Positions 1 through 35,878 of a DNA stretch of 35,878 nucleotides are shown one piece after another (positions within the stretch are counted from its first letter, which is position 1; every line of letters starts with the position of its first letter). Source of the DNA: a virus. A program made the translations under genes and the position numbers. The DNA lies in the IMG/VR virus record IMGVR_UViG_3300027509_000009; one strand, given 5' to 3'. The notes under the pieces are model-generated. The model saw only the letters and a list, made by a program, of their open reading frames with translations. It searched no databases and had not been told where the DNA came from.

Positions 1-444
1 TGCGATGTCAAAAAAGAGAGTCCCTCTGGTGTCGTCAAATCCAGCTCGTTTGCCAGCAACACTGAAAGCTTGGCATGGAAATCCTCCAACCACTGTGTCG
101 AAGTCGGGGAGTTCTTTTTCGTTGATTTTTGTGATGTCTCCATAGTTAGTGTGTCCATTGAAGTTCCTTTCGTAGACTTTAGTTGCGTATTTGTCGATTT
201 CGGAGTAACCAATACAATGAGGTTGTCCTTGGTTAGAGCCCCCGTCAGTGTGTTCATTATCTGGGTCTGCAGTAGCACCGGGATCTTGCTCTGAAAGGGT
301 GTGTAGTCGACCCCCTTTGCCATCGACTCCCTGCGCTGTCGCTTGCCCTCCTCGCTCCGCCTGTACATCAAAAGCCCTAGATATTCCAATTTCAAATCCT
401 CCTATGCCGCTAAATAGGCTTAAATATTTTAATTCTTTACTCAT
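1..444 (-). CDS. DNA (cytosine-5)-methyltransferase, N-terminal part; the gene crosses the circular junction and continues in 34848..35878
   Basis: Reverse-strand translation from ATG (444..442) gives MSKELKYLSLFSGIGGFEIG (motif I FxGxGG), then IGYSEIDKYATKVYERNF, then VVGGFPCQAFSVAGKRAGFDDTRGTLFFDIA (motif IV PCQ). The frame stays open to base 1. Bases 1..65 equal 35814..35878, where the same frame continues. It is absent from the ORF track because no stop lies inside the left edge. Joined length is 444 + 966 = 1410 nt (469 aa). Confidence 0.9.
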   Translation of the reverse strand, partial: MSKELKYLSLFSGIGGFEIGISRAFDVQAERGGQATAQGVDGKGGRLHTLSEQDPGATADPDNEHTDGGSNQGQPHCIGYSEIDKYATKVYERNFNGHTNYGDITKINEKELPDFDTVVGGFPCQAFSVAGKRAGFDDTRGTLFFDIA

Positions 445-614
445 TTGGACTCACTCTCACCATTGAGAGCAAGCACATCGATCTTACTGCAACAAACGGG
501 GCAGACAAGGTGTGGGGTAACTAATGCAGTCTTCCACCTATGTCCTCTTAAAAAACACTTAATATTCCAAAACCTCTCGGTACTCATACCCGGTTTTGTG
601 GTCTTCTTTACCAT
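441..614 (-). CDS. small Cys/His-rich (zinc-finger-like) protein, 57 aa, translationally coupled to the methyltransferase
   Basis: Hand translation: MVKKTTKPGMSTERFWNIKCFLRGHRWKTALVTPHLVCPVCCSKIDVLALNGESESK. A strong SD (AAGGAGG) lies 5 nt upstream of the ATG at 614..612. Its stop overlaps the methyltransferase start (ATGA). It is below the 60-aa cutoff of the ORF track. Confidence 0.55.
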   Translation of the reverse strand: MVKKTTKPGMSTERFWNIKCFLRGHRWKTALVTPHLVCPVCCSKIDVLALNGESESK

Positions 615-756
615 CTACGCCTCCTTATTTTTAGTTATCCTACGACCCATTTGCTTTGTGTCGTGACTAACAATATAACATGCAATAAGGGTCTAATTGC
701 AAGCACTTTCCATAAAACTAATGCATGTAGCGTACGGCTGCAGGGCAAAGGCACTA

Positions 757-942
757 TTAAGTAATCGATTGAGTCTGGGGTGGTGCTGGGGTCGGTCTGC
801 GTCGGCGGATAATTGGCGGCTCTGGGTCGGAGTCTTCTGGTCCTAGGGGGTCGTCCCCGATCTCAAGTCTGAGGTCGTCAGGGTAGGGACAATATAGATA
901 TCCGTCATGCTCTATATGGTCACAATGTCGGGGAAAATTCAT
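757..942 (-). CDS. hypothetical 61-aa protein with Pro/Arg-rich C-terminus (doubtful)
   Basis: It is an ORF-track entry and the first ORF downstream of the leftward promoter. It lacks the AGGAG-type SD seen before almost every other gene and sits in an unusually GC-rich patch. Confidence 0.3.
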   Translation of the reverse strand: MNFPRHCDHIEHDGYLYCPYPDDLRLEIGDDPLGPEDSDPEPPIIRRRRPTPAPPQTQSIT

Positions 943-1069
943 AAGCCCATTCTATCATAAAAGGTGTGAGGTTAAGTCGATTAAACACTAAAAGTGGGAA
1001 AACTGCGGGTAACCCACTAACGAAGCAAGATCAGTGTTCCAAAACCTCACTGATGAAGTATAACACATG

Positions 1070-1097
1070 GTTATAACATATAATTAGTGTTTGTCAA
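1070..1097 (-). promoter_or_regulatory. candidate sigma70-type leftward early promoter
   Basis: Read on the minus strand: TTGACA (1097..1092), a 16-nt spacer, then TATAAC (1075..1070). A T/A-rich tract lies upstream. It shares the decamer TTGACAAACA with the rightward promoter at 1637. Confidence 0.5.
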
Positions 1098-1117
1098 AAA
1101 GGGTAAAAATCTAAAAT

Positions 1118-1258
1118 CTGGCGGGTGGGAGGTAATATAGGGGACAGCCGGGACCCCGACCACCCACCCCCCCGCCCCCTATTGAGGGGGTACCCCACCC
1201 CCTTGCACGCCCTACCCACCCCACCCCCGGGGCCGCGACATATATATACACCCACCCA
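1118..1258. other. GC-rich island of G-runs then C-runs (G-quadruplex / i-motif / GC-palindrome capable)
   Basis: Plus-strand G-runs lie at 1123-1125, 1127-1129 and 1140-1143. Nine plus-strand C-runs of 3 or more follow between 1154 and 1228 (1154-1157, 1163-1165, 1167-1173, 1175-1179, 1193-1196, 1198-1202, 1215-1217, 1219-1222, 1224-1228). Embedded palindromes are GGGGTACCCC (1187..1196) and CCCCGGGG (1225..1232). The flanks are AT-rich. Confidence 0.7.
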
Positions 1259-1288
1259 TTGACACAGATTGATATATCCGAAATGCAG

Positions 1289-1514
1289 TAACAGGGGTCA
1301 GATACCATTCTATGTCGCACAATGTATCTTGTACGACCTGCGTTAACAGGGGTAGCCACCATGTCGCAATACAATCATGGCATAATATGTATGAAAATCT
1401 GTAGACACTTACGGTCTTAGTTTTAAATAAAAAAGAGTGTATATACATATATATGTTTTTTATTAATAGTGACACCGTAAGTGTCTACAAACGAAACAGG
1501 GGTATCTTATACGA
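1289..1514 (+). repeat. iteron-like direct repeats (AACAGGGGT x3, ATGTCGC(A) x3, GTATCTTrTACGA x2)
   Basis: AACAGGGGT occurs at 1290..1298, 1345..1353 and 1495..1503. ATGTCGCA occurs at 1312..1319 and 1361..1368, with an inverted ATGTCGC at 1235..1241. GTATCTTGTACGA (1324..1336) matches GTATCTTATACGA (1502..1514) at 12 of 13 positions. Confidence 0.65.
1400..1489. repeat. perfect 15-bp inverted repeat bracketing a 60-bp AT-rich spacer
   Basis: TGTAGACACTTACGG (1400..1414) is the exact reverse complement of CCGTAAGTGTCTACA (1475..1489). The spacer 1415..1474 is very AT-rich and includes TATATACATATATAT and A/T homopolymer runs. Confidence 0.75.
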
Positions 1515-1578
1515 TTTGAGTACAACCACACACCCCAGTTAAAAACCCCAATCCCAACTGTTGTAAGAATTACTAATT

Positions 1579-1598
1579 TGTAGACACTTACAAGTGTC
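1579..1598. promoter_or_regulatory. third copy of the TGTAGACACTTAC box, here as a compact palindrome (operator-like) about 40 bp upstream of the rightward promoter
   Basis: TGTAGACACTTAC lies at 1579..1591. GACACTT (1583..1589) and AAGTGTC (1592..1598) form an inverted repeat around a 2-nt centre. Confidence 0.5.
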
Positions 1599-1636
1599 CG
1601 CAAAATCCCCCTCACAATATTAAACATAAAAAAGTA

Positions 1637-1665
1637 TTGACAAACATGACCCAGCCATGTATTCT
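1637..1665 (+). promoter_or_regulatory. candidate strong sigma70-type rightward early promoter
   Basis: TTGACA (1637..1642), a 17-nt spacer, then TATTCT (1660..1665). An A-rich UP-like tract (AAACATAAAAAAGTA) sits at 1622..1636. Confidence 0.6.
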
Positions 1666-1671
1666 GGTTAT

Positions 1672-2244
1672 GTCAGCAAGCAACAAACACTGACGACAAG
1701 CACCTAACAGTTCAAGCCCCTAGCACCAACGGAACACTAACCGTTACAAAACAACCATAGTAACGCTACAGGCTCGACAACTAGGACAGAATCACCTTAA
1801 CAAACAGAACTACCACGACACAACCAATAACAGAATCTTTGCTTGTGGTGTAGTTCTCATCGATCTAATACAACACTGGCAATATAAGTACAGATGCCGA
1901 GGCTATAACTGCTTATGTATAAACATAGAATAATACAGCTTGTGTTGTCATTGTTGTATTAGATTTAAATCATGTAGCTGTTGCAAAGCATAGAGGCGAG
2001 AGAGATAATTTTGCTGTTTATACCTCTTAAGATACCATTAGAACCTTATGCCAACAGCCGTGCTTTGCACTAGCTACATGATAAGTTCGGCACAACGACC
2101 TGCGAGTCTCGGTGCGGAACAGTAGTAGCGAGTAAGGCGGAGGCCATTTTATCCCCCCTGATGAGTGGTCTCCACCCTGCTCGCTACTAGATAAATTCAT
2201 TGATAATATGAGGGTCAACGGTGCCCACCCCCGGTGGCTCTCAT
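1672..2244 (+). ncRNA. candidate large structured non-coding RNA or giant structured 5' leader of the early operon
   Basis: No plus-strand ORF of 60 aa or more, and no SD-led small ORF, lies between the promoter and the ATG at 2294. Region 1672..1835 is CA-rich and G-poor. Region 1860..2244 contains long helices found by hand: 1862-1875/1952-1965, 1971-1990/2061-2080, 2085-2093/2112-2120, 2123-2132/2180-2189 plus 2136-2145/2167-2176, and 2208-2214/2238-2244. Confidence 0.45.
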
Positions 2245-2259
2245 GTTGTCAATGACAAC
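2245..2259. promoter_or_regulatory. perfect 7-1-7 palindrome GTTGTCA-A-TGACAAC (operator-like) 35 bp upstream of the first early gene
   Basis: GTTGTCA (2245..2251) and TGACAAC (2253..2259) are exact reverse complements. The 1-nt centre is too small for an RNA hairpin loop, which favours a dimeric DNA-binding site. Confidence 0.45.
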
Positions 2260-2293
2260 AATTAATAAAATAATATGAAAGGCTTACTTCAAT

Positions 2294-2611
2294 ATGAAAG
2301 TAACAAACATAACCAACAGCAACGGAAATAAAGTTGCGAACCAGTTCATTATTCAATCGAAAGACGAAGAAATATTTCAAAGCTATGAAACACCAATAGC
2401 AAAATGGAAAGGGGGCGAGATAACTATTAGCCAGCACTACAATTACAGCAGAACCACTGCAAAGTATTTTAGACACTGGATGCGAAGCAATGGCTTCAAC
2501 GATACAGAAATTGACAGCTTGAGAAAACTATTAGCGAATGCCAGTTTTGGAGCTAATTTCATAGAGCTATTAGGCCGGAGAGTAAATATTAAATATGTAG
2601 AACGGGTATAG
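2294..2611 (+). CDS. hypothetical early protein, 105 aa
   Basis: ORF track. It is the first ORF after the long leader. I recognise no domain. Confidence 0.6.
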   Translation: MKVTNITNSNGNKVANQFIIQSKDEEIFQSYETPIAKWKGGEITISQHYNYSRTTAKYFRHWMRSNGFNDTEIDSLRKLLANASFGANFIELLGRRVNIKYVERV

Positions 2612-2613
2612 AA

Positions 2614-2805
2614 ATGACAATTAGAGAGATAAAATATATCTTAAACACTTACTTCCCAGAAGCAAAGACTCGAGCCAGCAAGTTTGGCGGAGTCTTTTTC
2701 TACACTGGAGTAAGTAGCTACTACATTAACCCTGGCGACACTATATTAGAGGTGATTGATACGCTCACAATAGCAAATGAAGAATTAAAATTAAGGAGTA
2801 ATTGA
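2614..2805 (+). CDS. hypothetical early protein, 63 aa
   Basis: ORF track. It starts 2 nt after the previous stop, so the genes are tightly packed. Confidence 0.5.
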   Translation: MTIREIKYILNTYFPEAKTRASKFGGVFFYTGVSSYYINPGDTILEVIDTLTIANEELKLRSN

Positions 2806-2806
2806 A

Positions 2807-2983
2807 ATGAATAACACACTTACAACCGACAAAGTGCGTTGCAATAATTGCATGTTAGTAATGAACCAGTATGTAGTAGATTGTAGCAATTGCCGAACAG
2901 AGCAATACTTAATGCAACCGTTCATGCAGAGTAAATCAGATATAGATAGCTACAGCTTAGACCTAGTAAAGATTAAGGAATAA
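2807..2983 (+). CDS. small zinc-ribbon-like protein, 58 aa
   Basis: Hand translation: MNNTLTTDKVRCNNCMLVMNQYVVDCSNCRTEQYLMQPFMQSKSDIDSYSLDLVKIKE, with two CxxC pairs. The SD AAGGAG lies 8 nt upstream. It is below the ORF-track size cutoff. Confidence 0.55.
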   Translation: MNNTLTTDKVRCNNCMLVMNQYVVDCSNCRTEQYLMQPFMQSKSDIDSYSLDLVKIKE

Positions 2984-2989
2984 TTAAAT

Positions 2990-3151
2990 ATGAACCCATA
3001 TATACACAATTCTTTAAACAGAGCTATTGATTGGCTCGAAAGTGAATACCCAGACGATGACGACATGCCAACCTATATATACGAAGCAAAGCAAGAGCTA
3101 CTACATATACACACACTAAAAGAACAGGAGCAACTAACATGTACACAATAA
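2990..3151 (+). CDS. hypothetical small acidic protein, 53 aa
   Basis: Hand translation: MNPYIHNSLNRAIDWLESEYPDDDDMPTYIYEAKQELLHIHTLKEQEQLTCTQ. An SD-like TAAGGAA lies upstream. It is below the ORF-track cutoff. Confidence 0.45.
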   Translation: MNPYIHNSLNRAIDWLESEYPDDDDMPTYIYEAKQELLHIHTLKEQEQLTCTQ

Positions 3152-3282
3152 GAGAAACACACGCTAAAAACTATCAACTATTAATTGATGACGGCTGGAC
3201 TGTTACCAATTACATTAACACAATTAACAAGCAAGTTCTTTACGCTCATAAAGGCAGCGAAAAGATTGAGATTAGTGTCTAA
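3139..3282 (+). CDS. hypothetical small protein, 47 aa
   Basis: Hand translation: MYTIRETHAKNYQLLIDDGWTVTNYINTINKQVLYAHKGSEKIEISV. The SD AGGAG lies 9 nt upstream. It overlaps the previous ORF by 13 nt. Confidence 0.45.
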   Translation: MYTIRETHAKNYQLLIDDGWTVTNYINTINKQVLYAHKGSEKIEISV

Positions 3283-3325
3283 TAGATAGGAGTAATTAAG
3301 GTTAAATAGTAAGGAGAATTAAACA

Positions 3326-3643
3326 ATGAGCATAAATTTCGACAACCCAACACAAAGAGAGCGCTTAAAAATGGATTTGCTGGAAGTTCTACCCGAGCAA
3401 ATAGCCCCAGGAGTAGATTCCCGGGATTATGTGATTGAGGACCTATTTAATCACATTGACGAACTCGAAAAAACAGCATCAGATTTTGAAGACACTACAG
3501 ACGACATGAGAGCAGCGCTTGACGATGCCGAGTATAGAGAAGACGAGTTAAATGACGAGATTGAAAGATTAACGGCCGAGTTAAGCGGAGCCGAGAACAT
3601 AATAGAGGAGTTACAAGGCAAAATAAAAGAATTGCAAGCCTAG
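3326..3643 (+). CDS. highly acidic coiled-coil early protein, 105 aa
   Basis: ORF track, with the SD AAGGAG upstream. The protein is very rich in D and E, for example DELEKTASDFEDTTDDMRAALDDAEYREDELNDEIERL. Confidence 0.7.
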   Translation: MSINFDNPTQRERLKMDLLEVLPEQIAPGVDSRDYVIEDLFNHIDELEKTASDFEDTTDDMRAALDDAEYREDELNDEIERLTAELSGAENIIEELQGKIKELQA

Positions 3644-3759
3644 TAATTTCGTGGGTGATAGCCAGTGCTTTTCTTTCGCATTTTTGTACGGCTAATCTAT
3701 AAAAGACAGCAATTTAGAAACTCTTGCGCCCACTCGACTTAAATTAATCAAAGGAGAAT

Positions 3760-4356
3760 ATGACAACTAGAGAAAAACTAATAATAACACTAGTCTCGTT
3801 GGTAGTATCTATCATCGTTCTAGTGGCGTTGACAGGCGGAGGCCAGAAACCCTCAACATCGTTTGACTGTTTCGAGGACGAATACAAGGCCATCGACATT
3901 AACGGAGACAGCGCCTGTATACATCACGAAGTAGTAGACGAGACAGTCAACGAGCCAGAAGTAGCGCCCCCAACTGTAGACGACCTTGAGGCAGACATAT
4001 TTGAAGACATTAACGAGATAAGAGCAGAGCGAGGGCTTGAGGCTGTAGTATATAATTCAATACTAGAGCAATCAGCAGACTTAAAAGCTTTGGACCATAT
4101 CGAGTTTGACTATTGGGCACATAACAACCCCAACGGCACAACCTGGTATTCATTCCCTAGGAATTTAGGCTGGGGTAAAGATGTTTCAGAGAATTTGGCT
4201 TGGGACTTTGACAGCGTTGACGATGTAGTCCCACAGTGGGAGTTAAGCCCTAGCCATGCGGAAAATATGTTTAACCCCAACCATGAGACCATTGGAATTT
4301 CTGTAATGCCTTTCAGAGGTGATTATATTTATGTAACACACTACGGGGGTAAATAA
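3760..4356 (+). CDS. membrane-anchored CAP/SCP/PR-1 (YkwD-like) domain protein
   Basis: ORF track, with the SD AAGGAG upstream. The N-terminus has a hydrophobic segment (LIITLVSLVVSIIVLVALTGG). The C-terminal region carries CAP-type motifs (IRAERGL, WAHNNPNG, SENLAW, SPSHAENM, IGISV). Confidence 0.65.
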   Translation: MTTREKLIITLVSLVVSIIVLVALTGGGQKPSTSFDCFEDEYKAIDINGDSACIHHEVVDETVNEPEVAPPTVDDLEADIFEDINEIRAERGLEAVVYNSILEQSADLKALDHIEFDYWAHNNPNGTTWYSFPRNLGWGKDVSENLAWDFDSVDDVVPQWELSPSHAENMFNPNHETIGISVMPFRGDYIYVTHYGGK

Positions 4357-4668
4357 ATGGAAGAAGAAACTTTCATCTGTCACAGATGTAACAGGAGCTT
4401 ATGGACCCAGTTCATATTGGACAAGCACCTAGAACACTGTGAAGCTGTAAGAATTGTCCCGAGGTCACCAATTAAAGTAAAAGGAAAGGAAACACCACCC
4501 TTGAGTAACAATATCAACTTAAAACTAGCTAGAGAGGCATTGGCAAAGGCAGATAAGCTGCACGACTCTGACACTATCAATATAGAGATTAACAAAGCTA
4601 TGGCCCACGCTTTAATAGCACTAGTAGAAAGACTATTAGAGGACGACAACGATGAAGAAGATAATTGA
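4357..4668 (+). CDS. C2H2-type zinc-finger-like protein, 103 aa
   Basis: ORF track. The N-terminal CHRCNRSLWTQFILDKHLEHC follows a CxxC-x12-HxxxC pattern. The C-terminus is acidic. Confidence 0.65.
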   Translation: MEEETFICHRCNRSLWTQFILDKHLEHCEAVRIVPRSPIKVKGKETPPLSNNINLKLAREALAKADKLHDSDTINIEINKAMAHALIALVERLLEDDNDEEDN

Positions 4669-4903
4669 TAAACTTTTAGGCGAAGACCCTGAAATTGATT
4701 TGTTGAGAGTCGAGAACGAACAATATCTTGAAGAATTGACCGAGTTGAAACATAAGTACAACGACTTAGTCGACACTTGCAATATGTATGCAGACATGGC
4801 CCGAGGTCATGGCAAGATAATCAAAGTCAAGGACGGCAACAAGAAACCGACCAAAGTTACAGTAACTGCGAAGAAGAAGAAAAAACCAACTAAGAAGAAA
4901 TAA
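4652..4903 (+). CDS. hypothetical protein with poly-lysine C-terminal tail, 83 aa
   Basis: ORF track. It overlaps the previous gene by 17 nt. The C-terminus reads KVTVTAKKKKKPTKKK. Confidence 0.6.
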   Translation: MKKIIDKLLGEDPEIDLLRVENEQYLEELTELKHKYNDLVDTCNMYADMARGHGKIIKVKDGNKKPTKVTVTAKKKKKPTKKK

Positions 4904-7965: not shown

Positions 7966-8126
7966 TGCCTGAGGACAAATTAATAAACAGAACATTCACC
8001 CTGCCAAAGTCGCAAGACGACTGGCTGAATGATTTCATGGACGAGAAAGATCTGACTAGAAGCCAGATTATCCGCGCCATGATTAGGGACAAGATGAATG
8101 AGAAAGTGGAGGTCAAAAATGGCTAA
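7965..8126 (+). CDS. ribbon-helix-helix (CopG/Arc-like) DNA-binding protein, 53 aa
   Basis: Hand translation: MPEDKLINRTFTLPKSQDDWLNDFMDEKDLTRSQIIRAMIRDKMNEKVEVKNG. This fits a beta-strand followed by two helices. The SD GGAAGGAG lies upstream and the start overlaps the helicase stop (TAATG). It is below the ORF-track cutoff. Confidence 0.6.
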   Translation: MPEDKLINRTFTLPKSQDDWLNDFMDEKDLTRSQIIRAMIRDKMNEKVEVKNG

Positions 8127-8727
8127 TCTAGTATTAGTAATTTCTGCGAGTGGTACTGGTAAATCTAGTTCACTGCGGAATTTAAACAAGAAAGAAGCAG
8201 CAGTAGTTTTGTGCAGTGGTAAGGATTTACCATTCAAGCATGACTTGAGTACTATAGTACCTAAAACCTACATTGATGTGTTCAATGTCATTGAAAAAAG
8301 TAAAAAGCCTATTATAGTTATTGATGATATCAACTACATGATGAGCTTTGAGGAAATGAACAGGGTTGGTGAAACTGGTTATGCCAAGTTTACACAAATG
8401 GCCGGTAACATGTTCCAAGTTTTCAAACGCATAATCGACAAAGATAGTGACCAGACCTTTTACCTGTTAGCTCACGCTTCGGAAGAAGAGGACGGCAAAC
8501 TAAGGTTTAAGACTACTGGCAAAATGCTGTCAGAGAAGATTGTGCTTGAGGGTCTGACTAACATAGTGATTACAAACGAAATTGTAGATGATGAGTTTGT
8601 GTTCAGAGTCAGAACCGATGGCAAAGGTGTTAAATCACCAATGGGAATGTTTGATAAGGCGACAATACCTAACGACATAAAATTGGTAGATGACGCAATC
8701 AAAAAGTTCCAAGGTAGTAAACAATAA
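8119..8727 (+). CDS. P-loop ATPase, possibly a Sak4/AAA_24-like recombination ATPase
   Basis: ORF track 8098..8727. I prefer the ATG at 8119 (MANLVLVISASGTGKSS...) because GGAGG lies 6 nt upstream. Walker A is SASGTGKS and a Walker-B-like IIVIDDI is present. The gene sits next to the SSB-like and exonuclease genes. Confidence 0.7.
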   Translation: MANLVLVISASGTGKSSSLRNLNKKEAAVVLCSGKDLPFKHDLSTIVPKTYIDVFNVIEKSKKPIIVIDDINYMMSFEEMNRVGETGYAKFTQMAGNMFQVFKRIIDKDSDQTFYLLAHASEEEDGKLRFKTTGKMLSEKIVLEGLTNIVITNEIVDDEFVFRVRTDGKGVKSPMGMFDKATIPNDIKLVDDAIKKFQGSKQ

Positions 8728-21137: not shown

Positions 21138-21168
21138 CCACAGGCATAAGCGCTTTATCCACAGGCAT
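21138..21168 (-). repeat. two direct copies of ATGCCTGTGG spaced 21 bp apart, just upstream of the promoter at 21081..21109
   Basis: On the plus strand, CCACAGGCAT occurs at 21138..21147 and again at 21159..21168. The 21-bp spacing equals two helical turns. Confidence 0.6.
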
Positions 21169-22934
21169 TACTGAGGTACACCAGGCATTTCAGGGAACTG
21201 TGGAAGAAGTGGTGCTGCTGGCTGTGGTTGCAATCTTGAGCTACTAGGGACTGTCTTTTCAAGGATTCTATCCTCTAATTCGCTAATCTTCTTTTGCTTC
21301 TCGAAGTCATTAGGGTCAGCGTTCTGAGTCATTGTTACTAGCATGTCCTGCAAGCCCTCTAGGGTCTTCTCTTCAAGCTCATCCTTGCCGATACTAAGCT
21401 CGATCTCAACACTCCAAGATTCAATAGAATTATAGTAGTCATTCCAGTCTATAGTGATTTTGTTATCATCACCGACTGCCGGGACATACTCAGGTGTTTC
21501 TTCACTTGGGACGAACTTAGACTCAGAGATGCGATTTATAGCAGTTTTAGCCTCATCGTCCAAGATTATCTCTGCTTCATTAGGTATCTTTTCATTGCTT
21601 TCTGGGTCTATATTCACATCTAAAACCTGCTCTGCAACCAGAGTATCAAGAGCAACAAGTGCATATTGTCTTAAAAAGCTTTCTATAAGGTTGGTTATCT
21701 GGTTAGTCACACTGTCCTGAACTGAGTTCTGCTGCTTAACTCCTGGACCTGTCTTAGAAAAGTTACCACCATTATTCACTGCGCTAAATGGTTGCCCCAT
21801 TATATTCTGTATCTGCCCAGATAAGAACTCCATCATAGGCTTAAATTGGCTTAAAGCTCCATTATCCATAGCGACCAACTCAGCCTTAGCGTTTTGGTCT
21901 AGCGCCTCCCAAACAGTACCCTGTTTCAACTGGATAGGTTTCGTAAATCTACCTCGCTTTAAGACAGGGGGCTTGCTGTTTAGTAAAAGCATGGAAGCTA
22001 TGTTTTGGTAATAAATGTTAGCTAGGTTCTGGTTCGGGGATGCCAGACGGACGCGGGACACACCGAAAGGCGTTAGCGGAGCCGGGTCTATCACGAGGAA
22101 GTTAATCCGAGGATAACCGAACTTAGACTTATTAGGTATAGCCCTCAGTCCCTCTTCTTCCAGTTGAGGGCAGAAAGTACAGAATTTACCGCCTTTGCCG
22201 ACTTCGTATTTAGTGACTAATTGATAAGTATTAGCAGAATACTCCTCTGCAGCCTTGGCTCTGGCATCTGATTGGTAGATGGAATATTTCATCATAGTTT
22301 CAGGTTCTATCTCTAGCAACCTTGTTAAGGCAGGGACATTCCAGCTAGTGTTAGGGTTAGACTTAGCAGCCTTGAGTATTTTACGAACTCTCGATTTTGT
22401 TAGGTTAGCAACAACATAGAAGTACCCTGCTTCACTGGCATCTTGGATGCCTGGCTCTGGGTCTACATCTGAGTAATGCATAAGTCTCATGCTTGTACCA
22501 AATTCATCCATCATAGTCCCAGTTTTAGTCATAAGAGGAGCATAGCCATGAGTTACAGCCTGTTCTGTGCCCATTTGCATAGTTGCCAAAAGGCTCTTGC
22601 CAAAAGTGTCTTCATTGAAAACATATTTACGCAAGAAGAATGAGCCTAATTGAGCTTTTATGCTGTTTTTAGTGCCGTTGATAACAGATGAATATATGGG
22701 CAGTTGTTGTAGTGAATTTCTCGATATCTGCCTAACTAGACCAGCAATAGTAGTGTCTCCAACATAAGCGGCATTTTTCTGCTTATTAAGAGGTACACCA
22801 TCAACGATGTTATCTAATTGGGGGAAGTCTTCTGTATGTTTTTCCCTGTTAGAGCGAGAAGTATCCCACTCACCGATGAGCTCGTTCATGTCAAGGTCTT
22901 TAACTGCTTGAGGTGTCTTGTATTCTTCTATCAT
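21168..22934 (-). CDS. putative portal protein, 588 aa
   Basis: ORF track, with the SD AAGGAG upstream. Its size and its position upstream of the scaffold-like and capsid genes are typical of portal genes. I recognise no unambiguous motif by eye. Confidence 0.55.
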   Translation of the reverse strand: MIEEYKTPQAVKDLDMNELIGEWDTSRSNREKHTEDFPQLDNIVDGVPLNKQKNAAYVGDTTIAGLVRQISRNSLQQLPIYSSVINGTKNSIKAQLGSFFLRKYVFNEDTFGKSLLATMQMGTEQAVTHGYAPLMTKTGTMMDEFGTSMRLMHYSDVDPEPGIQDASEAGYFYVVANLTKSRVRKILKAAKSNPNTSWNVPALTRLLEIEPETMMKYSIYQSDARAKAAEEYSANTYQLVTKYEVGKGGKFCTFCPQLEEEGLRAIPNKSKFGYPRINFLVIDPAPLTPFGVSRVRLASPNQNLANIYYQNIASMLLLNSKPPVLKRGRFTKPIQLKQGTVWEALDQNAKAELVAMDNGALSQFKPMMEFLSGQIQNIMGQPFSAVNNGGNFSKTGPGVKQQNSVQDSVTNQITNLIESFLRQYALVALDTLVAEQVLDVNIDPESNEKIPNEAEIILDDEAKTAINRISESKFVPSEETPEYVPAVGDDNKITIDWNDYYNSIESWSVEIELSIGKDELEEKTLEGLQDMLVTMTQNADPNDFEKQKKISELEDRILEKTVPSSSRLQPQPAAPLLPQFPEMPGVPQ

Positions 22935-34851: not shown

Positions 34852-35878
34852 TTTGCCTCCTCATAGCAACCCCGTTCAATCATCGCCGTAAACACAGCCT
34901 CGATAACATTTGTAGTCACCCCATTGCCACACATCTTGTAACGCTGGGTATTTGAGATGTCGTAGTCGTCTACTCCATAAGTGTCACCTCCATACTTAGT
35001 CCAATCGTCCGGAAATCCCTGTAATCTTTCACATTCTCTAGGGGTTAGCTTGCGTATTTTTGAATTATCTAAAGTCCCTTGCGTTGAGGCAGTATCGAGC
35101 GTATTAGCGATACCCTTACCAACTCTGCCACGCCTAGTCTTAGAGTTAGGGTGGGTGTAGTTGATCGAGTCGCCATCCTGAGCCTCTGAATAGCCTTTCT
35201 TGGTAGCTTCTTTTATAGCTACATAGTTATCTTTCTGAACTGATGTAATGGTATTTGTATTGCCATCTTTTCTCGCCTCAATAGTTTGCACAGGGGGATT
35301 ACCTCTACCTCTTTGAGCGACTATAACCCCATTCCTGCCATCGCCGTCTGGAGACCCTCTATAGCTAGAAGTCAAAGTCCCGGCTATGGATTGCTCCTGA
35401 TATTCTGTTCTGTGTTTTCTGGCTACTACAATCTTCGGCTCAAGCCCCCCACCCTGCATAGTGCTTAAGGTTGGGCTTGCCCCATCTGTTCCGTAGATCC
35501 TGCCTGTGTTTGGGTTTGGTCTGGCTCTGTGTTCGTGGATGTTGCCAATTTGCTTAATATCTTGCCCTGTTGTTCCGAGGATAGGAAATACTTGTCGTCC
35601 ACATCTGTCTCTAAGATGTCCGATAATGATAATCCGCTCTCTGTTTTGGGGAACTCCGAAGTCTTTGCTGTTAAGTACCTGCCATTCCACTCTGTAGCCC
35701 AAGTCGGAGAGAACCCCAATGATTGTCTGGAAAGTTCGTCCTTTGTCATGACTAAGTAGACCTTTAACATTTTCGAGTACCAGATGTTTGGGTTTCTTTT
35801 CTTTGAGAATCCTTGCGATGTCAAAAAAGAGAGTCCCTCTGGTGTCGTCAAATCCAGCTCGTTTGCCAGCAACACTGA
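34848..35878 (-). CDS. DNA (cytosine-5)-methyltransferase, C-terminal part (continuation of 1..444 across the junction)
   Basis: Track ORF 34848..35702 starts artificially at an internal Met. The same frame is open upstream to the window end: SVAGKRAGFDDTRGTLFFDIARILKEKKPKHLVLENVKGLL...GYRVEWQVLNSKDFGVPQNRERIIIIG (motifs VI and VIII). It continues to RKLTPRECERLQGFPDDW (motif IX) and YKMCGNGVTTNV (motif X). Confidence 0.9.
   Translation of the reverse strand, partial: SVAGKRAGFDDTRGTLFFDIARILKEKKPKHLVLENVKGLLSHDKGRTFQTIIGVLSDLGYRVEWQVLNSKDFGVPQNRERIIIIGHLRDRCGRQVFPILGTTGQDIKQIGNIHEHRARPNPNTGRIYGTDGASPTLSTMQGGGLEPKIVVARKHRTEYQEQSIAGTLTSSYRGSPDGDGRNGVIVAQRGRGNPPVQTIEARKDGNTNTITSVQKDNYVAIKEATKKGYSEAQDGDSINYTHPNSKTRRGRVGKGIANTLDTASTQGTLDNSKIRKLTPRECERLQGFPDDWTKYGGDTYGVDDYDISNTQRYKMCGNGVTTNVIEAVFTAMIERGCYEEAK
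35814..35878. repeat. 65-bp terminal duplication of bases 1..65 (circular-closure overlap)
   Basis: This is an exact identity read directly from the sequence. It lies inside the methyltransferase coding frame. Confidence 0.95.

Follow-up and report, generated by a model that had tools for sequence, protein, structure and literature searches.

We analysed a stretch of viral DNA of 35,878 nucleotides (nt; IMG/VR record IMGVR_UViG_3300027509_000009, the whole of which we call the window) in which a long, strongly folded, untranslated leader lies between an early promoter and the first early gene. The window has a 65-nt terminal overlap (1–65 and 35814–35878) and therefore represents the complete assembly of a circular phage genome. 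Early and replication genes occupy the plus strand from 2294 to about 11,500 and encode a DUF8033 protein, a CAP-domain protein, an SNF2 helicase, a PIF1/Dda helicase, Sak4, SSB and a YqaJ-type exonuclease, along with seven small open reading frames (ORFs) without a family match (Pfam returned nothing for the six of them that it covered, all but the 53-aa ORF at 8027–8188). The minus strand carries the primase, the structural and lysis genes and a putative C5-methyltransferase gene, assigned from reading its translation; TerL is on the plus strand. The divergent gene blocks are separated by a 1.35-kb non-coding gap, 943–2293, which holds the leader (1672–2293; Table 1). No phage-encoded RNA polymerase was detected among the proteins of the genome and the promoters resemble those of sigma-70, so that transcription should depend on the host enzyme.

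Promoter, CA-rich tract and hairpin stack

The early promoter, already proposed in a preliminary description of this DNA, is the top site within 400–3400 and matches the consensus at 10 of 12 positions. Its location and its −35 and −10 hexamers are kept in at least ten related phages, including those of loci L029, L032, L038, L043, L060, L072, L085, L087 and L088. The leader that follows is bipartite. Its 5′ part had been described as rich in C and A and poor in G, and the measured composition of 1672–1835 (A 43%, C 31%, G 14%, T 12%) agrees; among all 164-nt segments of the genome, this one has the highest A + C content (73.8%) and the lowest T content. The CA-rich module folds at −0.16 kcal/mol per nt, compared with −0.40 in the structured part. 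The 3′ part, 1806–2255, forms six adjacent hairpins (H0–H5) in the minimum free energy (MFE) fold, joined by linkers of 2–7 nt. Averaged over the entire folded domain, the pair probability is 0.87, and all six hairpins persist in the centroid structure. Four of the hairpins (H1, H2, H4 and H5) are rods of 21–28 base pairs (bp) of double-stranded RNA (dsRNA), and the end of H5 is followed by 24 nt of A/U-rich, single-stranded spacer before the Shine–Dalgarno sequence. The sequence CCCACCCCCGG in the apical loop of H5 (2224–2234) is identical to 1220–1230 in a C-rich tract further upstream.

Table 1. Coordinates of the leader, its surroundings and the class A elements of related phages
Feature	Position	Strand	Remarks
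Divergent control region, conserved	1088–1600		Context, not part of the RNA: leftward TTGACA 1097–1092 (−), C-rich tract 1140–1260, three AACAGGGGT, three TGTAGACAC
TGTAGACAC motifs	1400–1408, 1481–1489, 1579–1587	+, −, +	Spacing 81 and 179 nt around A/T-rich centre 1420–1470
A/T-rich UP-like tract	1615–1636	+	Upstream of −35 hexamer; read from the sequence; relatives equally A/T-rich there
Sigma-70-type early promoter, TTGACA-17-TATTCT	1637–1665	+	TTGACAAACATGACCCAGCCATGTATTCT; predicted transcription start near 1672
Small 5′-terminal hairpin, GUCAG(13 nt)CUGAC	1672–1694	+	In MFE folds; at predicted 5′ end of transcript
CA-rich, G-poor, weakly structured leader module	1672–1804	+	Composition kept family-wide, sequence partly, up to about 1783
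H0	1806–1857	+	8+2+5+3 bp; MFE fold, absent from the preliminary list of helices
H1	1862–1965	+	14+13-bp coaxial rod, branched 48-nt top; inner 13-bp helix has G-U pairs valid on the plus strand only
Third TGTTGTCAWTG copy	1943–1953	+	In 3′ arm of H1, over −35-like hexamer at 1945
H2	1969–2082	+	12+10-bp rod plus inner stems
H3, 36 nt, GTTC...GAAC	2085–2120	+	4+4+3 bp
H4	2123–2189	+	12+11-bp rod, C-rich apical loop
H5	2197–2255	+	21-bp rod rich in G-U pairs; apical loop has CCCACCCCCGG
Perfect 8-1-8 palindrome, TGTTGTCA-A-TGACAACA	2244–2260		Overlaps promoter-like site 2246–2274
First early gene, 105-aa DUF8033 protein	2279–2611	+	Includes weak Shine–Dalgarno AAAGG 2279–2283; ATG 2294; homologues begin MKVTNITN
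Class A elements of relatives	L029:7590–7700, L038:8195–8308, L043:780–915, L062:1–112, L085:6535–6643

The helices listed in the preliminary description were recovered at 1862–1875/1952–1965 (13 Watson–Crick pairs and one G-U pair), 1971–1990/2061–2080 (18 Watson–Crick pairs, one G-U pair and one mismatch), 2085–2093/2112–2120 (eight of nine positions paired), 2123–2132/2180–2189 (ten of ten) and 2208–2214/2238–2244 (six Watson–Crick pairs and one G-U pair). The stem at 2136–2145/2167–2176 also stood (eight Watson–Crick pairs, one G-U pair and one mismatch), but the 21-nt loop assigned to it does not: in the MFE fold this part of H4 pairs further and leaves a C-rich loop of 6 nt.

The stability of the leader is extreme and biased towards the plus strand. 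The MFE of 1672–2293 is −210.5 (z = −11.7). For 1805–2260 alone the plus strand folds at −183.1 kcal/mol with z = −10.0, compared with z-scores of −4.2 to +1.8 in 22 control segments of the genome; the minus strand of the same segment is also well below chance (−156.7 kcal/mol, z = −6.3), and the plus strand is better by 26 kcal/mol. The plus-strand helices contain 17 G-U pairs, each of which would become an A-C mismatch on the minus strand, as against two A-C 1×1 mismatches that point in the opposite direction. Near-identical copies of the phage are present in three other assemblies (ENA, JGI and Logan), with 0–2 differences in 600–2700, which makes them useless for covariation. Across the hairpin segment, the ENA and Logan assemblies are identical and the JGI copy differs by one base; this sole difference in the structured leader, A>G at 2118, changes a U-A pair of H3 to U-G and retains the pair. 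Together, the strand bias, the excess of G-U pairs and the substitution at 2118 favour an RNA that is read towards the early genes, rather than a palindrome that acts purely as DNA.

Three independent assemblies (35,878, 35,954 and 35,866 nt; L022 and L023) begin at most about 66 nt apart, in the same orientation, within the C5-methyltransferase gene. Such a shared start is unexpected for arbitrary breaks of a circle and may stem from the pipeline or mark a boundary of coverage or of a repeat.

As the preliminary description had stated, the leader has no plus-strand ORF of 60 aa or more. Its only ORFs of at least 25 aa, at 1981–2073 and 2048–2125, with 2027–2218 on the minus strand, lack a Shine–Dalgarno sequence by eye, and Pfam gave no match for 1981–2073 or 2027–2218. 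No terminator-like site was found between 1672 and 2293, again as described before, and with no terminator in between the leader RNA is predicted to read through into the gene at 2294.

A search of the whole window against Rfam 15 at the gathering score, which included ROOL, GOLLD, HEARO, 6S, ribozymes and riboswitches, gave no match. At E values up to 10, the region 900–2700 returned just sub-threshold matches to microRNAs, small nucleolar RNAs and small RNAs, which we ascribe to hairpin shape. These negative searches lead us to reject membership in ROOL, GOLLD, HEARO or 6S, and with it the earlier suggestion of a ROOL- or GOLLD-type relative. ARAGORN found 0 transfer RNA or transfer-messenger RNA genes in the window. 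We also rejected H3 as a solitary CRISPR repeat or Racr-like RNA: no CRISPR-DR family matched in 900–2700 at E values up to 10, and a test that covered H3 alone gave 25 single matches in 185,579 genomes, none of them in arrays, against about 17 by a rough chance estimate. A hammerhead built from CUGAUGAG in H4 was rejected because there is no GAAA, no stem III and no Rfam match, and a miniature inverted-repeat mobile element because there is no second copy in the genome, the relatives or IMG/VR and, by eye, no flanking duplication. The leader RNA is an orphan, belonging to no described family and having no detectable homologue.

The leader slot in related phages

Homologues of the helicase number in the hundreds at 60–78% identity, many of them on 34–37-kb contigs, and about 60 related loci were gathered through helicase and DUF8033 homologues. 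With 900–2300 as the query, nhmmer aligned window positions 1050 to about 1780 to at least ten relatives, which are metagenomic phages of about 36 kb; the alignments end at 1775–1783. In the relatives, the aligned part comprises a leftward TTGACA, a C-rich tract, three TGTAGACAC motifs, the rightward promoter (TATTGACAA-17-TAnnnT) and the CA-rich tract. All relatives have the promoter followed by about 100–130 nt of CA-rich tract (A 33–48%, C 23–33%, G 13–24%), and L088 has, by eye, a GUCA...UGAC at the position matching the small 5′-terminal hairpin of the window. The conservation of the promoter and the CA-rich tract indicates that the early transcription unit truly starts here and that its leader is of importance.

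The hairpin stack lies beyond the point at which homology ends. Segment 1780–2300 gave no match to the roughly 60 related loci by nhmmer (E = 10) or word-7 blastn, and scans of IMG/VR with 17-mer and 19-mer stem sequences gave chance matches only. The preliminary description had set conservation of the helices among homologues as its test, and the outcome went the other way: 1805–2260 is absent from all relatives and is a lineage-specific addition. The early proteins of 2614–4903 have no homologue in the roughly 60 related loci either, and DUF8033 recurs only in other, unrelated phages, at up to 60% identity. We therefore regard 1784–4903 (3.1 kb) as a lineage-specific block whose first element is the hairpin stack; of the nine proteins encoded in it, between the control region and the SNF2 helicase, DUF8033 alone recurs elsewhere. 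In the window, 715 nt separate the last TGTAGACAC from the first early gene, compared with 220–390 nt in the relatives, and the leader measures 622 nt as opposed to 181–290 nt.

A structured element was nevertheless found at the same slot, after the promoter and the CA-rich tract, in the relatives examined, where it is closed by a long-range stem that ends just before the Shine–Dalgarno sequence of the first gene. These slot elements are not homologous to one another. In class A (L029, L038, L043, L062 and L085), two copies of AACGGGCUAC lie within a closing helix of about 25 bp, the whole being about 100–110 nt long, and compensatory double changes occur in 18 of the 33 predicted pairs across the five sequences. 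Class B (L032 and L060) has CTCTTAGGGTGGG in common. The elements of L037, L072 and L087 are different again; L037, L072 and L088 carry a structured element at the slot by eye, and L088 and L037 fold into comparable closing rods, that of L088 just before the gene having z = −6.4. Most of the relatives' elements are not thermodynamic outliers (z from 0 to −1.8), and among them the element of the window is exceptional in size and stability. That a stem-closed RNA recurs just ahead of the first ribosome-binding site suggests a demand for structured RNA at this slot, an idea that the covariation of class A supports.

Class A may be a new phage RNA family in its own right, separate from the hairpin stack though located at the same slot. 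At the gathering score, Rfam had no match in the four class A loci scanned (L029, L038, L043 and L085). The covariance model built for it (R1) matched its five source sequences only among 57 sources, and a scan for CGGGCTAC...ACGGGCTAC returned 120 loci, none of them related to class A by nhmmer. The window itself holds no class A element, as it has no CGGGCTAC in a regular-expression search and no match to R1. Both elements have a long closing rod and sit between the CA-rich tract and the Shine–Dalgarno sequence, but class A is about 110 nt long, compared with about 450 nt in the window, and its structure is backed by covariation.

Further afield, a blastn search of 1000–4000 against 50,697 phage records returned zero matches. 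By tblastn against cultured phages, the helicase and a 588-aa protein (21168–22934, minus strand), which matches annotated portal proteins, reached identities below 28%, with no close cultured relative to point to a host, and no relative of the helicase was found in 185,579 reference genomes. An Rfam scan of ten related loci at the gathering score gave no match, and a literature search on DUF8033 found nothing. In the phages in which DUF8033 stands first (L088–L095), the upstream gap is 1.2 kb long, contains tandem consensus promoters, small ORFs and terminators and shows no sequence similarity to the window; DUF8033 is the first gene after the gap in all of these phages except L088, where a 54-aa ORF precedes it.

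The control region upstream of the leader is shared with the relatives. Its TGTAGACAC arrangement, with spacings of 81 and 179 nt, is kept in at least eight of them, and unrelated IMG/VR phages, both GC-rich and AT-rich, likewise have the inverted pair flanking a TATATA centre (L248, L251 and L252); TGTAGACAC is probably bound by an origin or operator protein. A scan for the inverted pair found no further family member with a leader. Direct copies of AACAGGGGT(A/C) lie at 1290–1299, 1345–1354 and 1495–1504, the first two inside a 20-nt repeat, 55 nt apart. The sequence TTTGTCAAAAAGG is kept in the relatives, and its minus strand reads as a leftward TTGACA-16-TATAAC promoter (1088–1100), which faces two small ORFs (757–942 and 441–614, minus strand) and the methyltransferase gene; the divergent promoters are 540 nt apart. 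Between them, the tract at 1140–1260 is C-rich in the relatives too, and its minus strand contains canonical G-quadruplex motifs such as GGGGTGGGGTGGGTAGGG (the reverse complement of 1212–1229).

A proposed cis-acting leader and the alternatives

The reading that we favour, tentatively and at rather less than even confidence, is that of a cis-acting, untranslated early leader that combines a CA-rich platform with lineage-specific dsRNA rods for RNase III-type processing, 5′ stabilisation or both. On this reading, 1672–2293 would be the untranslated 5′ leader of an early operon for replication and host takeover, started by the host sigma-70 polymerase at 1637–1665. The family-wide CA-rich tract of about 130 nt could offer a landing site to a factor with affinity for single-stranded RNA, Rho being the most obvious candidate, and the six hairpins at 1806–2255 may function in cis, as sites of RNase III-type processing, as 5′ stabilisers or as both, cutting off or insulating the leader and setting a stable 5′ end about 25–40 nt upstream of the first ribosome-binding site. 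The lambda pL-N leader with its RNase III hairpin, T7 R0.3 and the early RNase III sites of SP82 operate in this manner. RNase III needs rods in the length class of 21–28 bp, and the four rods of this size in the stack fall within it. The stack has the structure expected of an RNase III site or stabiliser, namely coaxial dsRNA of at least about 20 bp within untranslated RNA between an early promoter and the first gene. The analysis establishes the conserved promoter, the two-part architecture, the extreme and plus-strand-biased stability, the lack of coding potential and of terminators, and the covarying class A element at the same slot; transcription itself, cleavage or stabilisation, and any role of Rho, we infer.

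Several points weigh against this interpretation. No homologue of 1805–2260 exists in the roughly 60 loci or in the IMG/VR k-mer scans, which makes a covariation test impossible, and neither the host nor the status of its RNases and Rho could be traced by homology. The relatives manage with about 100 nt at the slot, mostly of non-outlier stability, so that a simple processing role leaves the sixfold expansion unexplained; nor does it explain the need for six hairpins where the relatives have one. To our knowledge, four tandem rods of RNase III size without intervening genes have no precedent, and a literature search on RNase III leaders found no paper on the present phage group.

An alternative, which we regard as unlikely, is that the segment is an accessory non-coding RNA, or a source of processed small RNAs, that acts in trans as a decoy or sponge for a host RNA-binding protein, a dsRNA nuclease or a defence system and was gained with the lineage-specific block. 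Lineage-specific early blocks are the usual place of accessory and anti-defence functions, and the stack is the first element of such a block, which apart from DUF8033 has no homologues in related phages. In size and stability it far exceeds the cis elements of the relatives, its discrete hairpins with short linkers resemble a processed polycistronic precursor, and the C-rich loops at the tips of H4 and H5 have the look of exposed binding sites. However, the RNA belongs to no known family and has no terminator of its own, no complementarity of the hairpin block to the rest of the phage genome was found, the CRISPR-repeat idea for H3 failed and, with no homologues, evidence of selection is limited to the strand bias. 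A bolder version, which we hold to be quite unlikely, joins this idea to the variety of elements in the family: the slot after the early promoter and CA-rich tract would be an exchangeable cassette for structured RNA, with at least four unrelated types of which one covaries, and the 450-nt version of the window would be a new large phage non-coding RNA, released by processing; it would target the host in trans, serving for instance as a decoy of a defence or RNA-decay factor that binds dsRNA or C-rich loops.

Alternatively, the segment may work as DNA, through operators and internal early promoters or through cruciform or secondary-origin structures beside the putative origin or operator region; we find this doubtful, and less likely than either form of trans action. 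The motif TGTTGTCAWTG occurs three times in the genome, where 0.06 would be expected, and all copies are within the leader (on both strands of 2244–2260, and at 1943–1953). The palindrome covers a −35-like hexamer at 2246, as the third copy does at its own site. The more distant phages that begin with DUF8033 have tandem strong promoters in their gaps, the region adjoins the conserved, iteron-like TGTAGACAC repeats and their A/T-rich centre, and the minus strand also folds far better than chance. Against this, the plus strand is the more stable by the margin given above and the G-U pairs are concentrated there, promoter-like sites are in modest excess only (14, compared with 8.0 ± 2.5 in shuffles) and have poor −10 hexamers within the leader, a start at about 2281 would remove the Shine–Dalgarno sequence, and the relatives replicate without the segment. 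As 1943–1953 is perfectly complementary to 2250–2260, this copy is a possible operator half-site or partner in long-range RNA pairing, and TGTTGTCAWTG may be an operator or may mediate a long-range pairing in competition with H1 and H5. The motif itself is genuine.

More doubtful again is an elongation checkpoint, in which the CA-rich tract would be a Rho-utilisation (rut) site that terminates untranslated early transcripts, and the structured RNA would modify the polymerase, in the manner of HK022 put, or block Rho. An untranslated RNA of 620 nt is an obvious target of Rho. In composition only, the tract corresponds to a rut site, that is, at least 70–80 nt of C-rich, G-poor, unstructured and untranslated RNA: with C at 31% and G at 14%, its C/G ratio averages 2.1 and peaks at 3.0 in 78-nt segments, above the 99th percentile (1.85) of the remaining plus-strand early operon, and this composition is kept in all relatives. 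On the other hand, YC dimers are few, just 14 in 164 nt, most C residues being preceded by A, and the region after the promoter that would be equivalent to put is unstructured. An exact boxA (YGCTCTTWA) is absent from 1672–2293, which has one site with a single mismatch (2012–2020), and boxA-like matches across the genome are at chance level (44 compared with 38.9 expected). Moreover, the CA-rich tract is conserved and the structured module is not, which means that the latter cannot be the obligatory partner of the former.

Least probable, in our view, is a non-functional by-product, whether of recent inverted duplication, of the decay of miniature mobile elements or of recombination at a mosaic junction: although the segment occurs in one lineage only, has near-perfect arms that suggest evolutionary youth and by eye changes in base composition along its length (H1 is A/T-rich, H3–H5 are G+C-rich), six different hairpins are tightly packed in a compact genome with a plus-strand bias in pairing, no further copies or target-site duplications were found, and the ENA and Logan assemblies agree at every base, with the JGI copy one base apart.

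If the hairpin block is functional, this would be among the largest untranslated leaders in a small phage, with about 1.7% of a 35.8-kb genome spent on RNA structure, and lineages would be able to swap the first transcribed element of an early operon as they do an accessory gene. A natural comparison is available within the family, in which the same promoter and CA-rich tract precede different RNA cassettes, with processing, mRNA stabilisation, Rho control and interference with host factors as candidate roles. The covarying class A motif is ready for description as a candidate RNA family.

Comparison with known systems

Structured, untranslated leaders are a kind of element already known from phage early operons; what is new here is the size of the leader, the layout of its rods in tandem and the evidence of a slot that is exchangeable between lineages. 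Like ROOL, GOLLD and HEARO, which are 400–600 nt long, the element has many helices and a phage context, but those RNAs have an ornate, multi-junction fold, whereas the window has a row of simple hairpins and no conserved family. HK022 put has two stem-loops of about 35 nt, which come immediately downstream of an early promoter, and it too is a structured RNA acting in cis in a phage that depends on host RNA polymerase. In the window, however, the first 130 nt or so lack structure, and the part that does fold is six times larger; this comparison was made by description only.

The early region of T7 has tandem promoters A1–A3 and the RNase III site R0.3 before gene 0.3, and the early mRNAs of SP82 and SPO1 also have RNase III sites; the T7 hairpins set mRNA ends and stability. 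In both T7 and the window, a non-coding stretch of several hundred nt runs from the first promoter for host polymerase to the first early gene and ends in hairpins of RNase III size. The length of the T7 stretch is explained by its three strong promoters, whereas the promoter-like sites inside the leader of the window are weak, and T7 has one rod per gene junction rather than four in tandem. In the pL-N leader of lambda, a large hairpin that is sensitive to RNase III comes after nutL and shortly before the N ribosome-binding site. The lambda leader is about 220 nt long with one structure, compared with about 620 nt and six hairpins here; in the window, boxA and boxB are not above chance, there is no sequence similarity and an N-like protein was not identified. 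The order of parts is nevertheless alike in the two phages: an early sigma-70 promoter, a single-stranded platform for proteins and elongation factors, long irregular dsRNA and then the first early gene, all in an untranslated leader that is co-transcribed with that gene.

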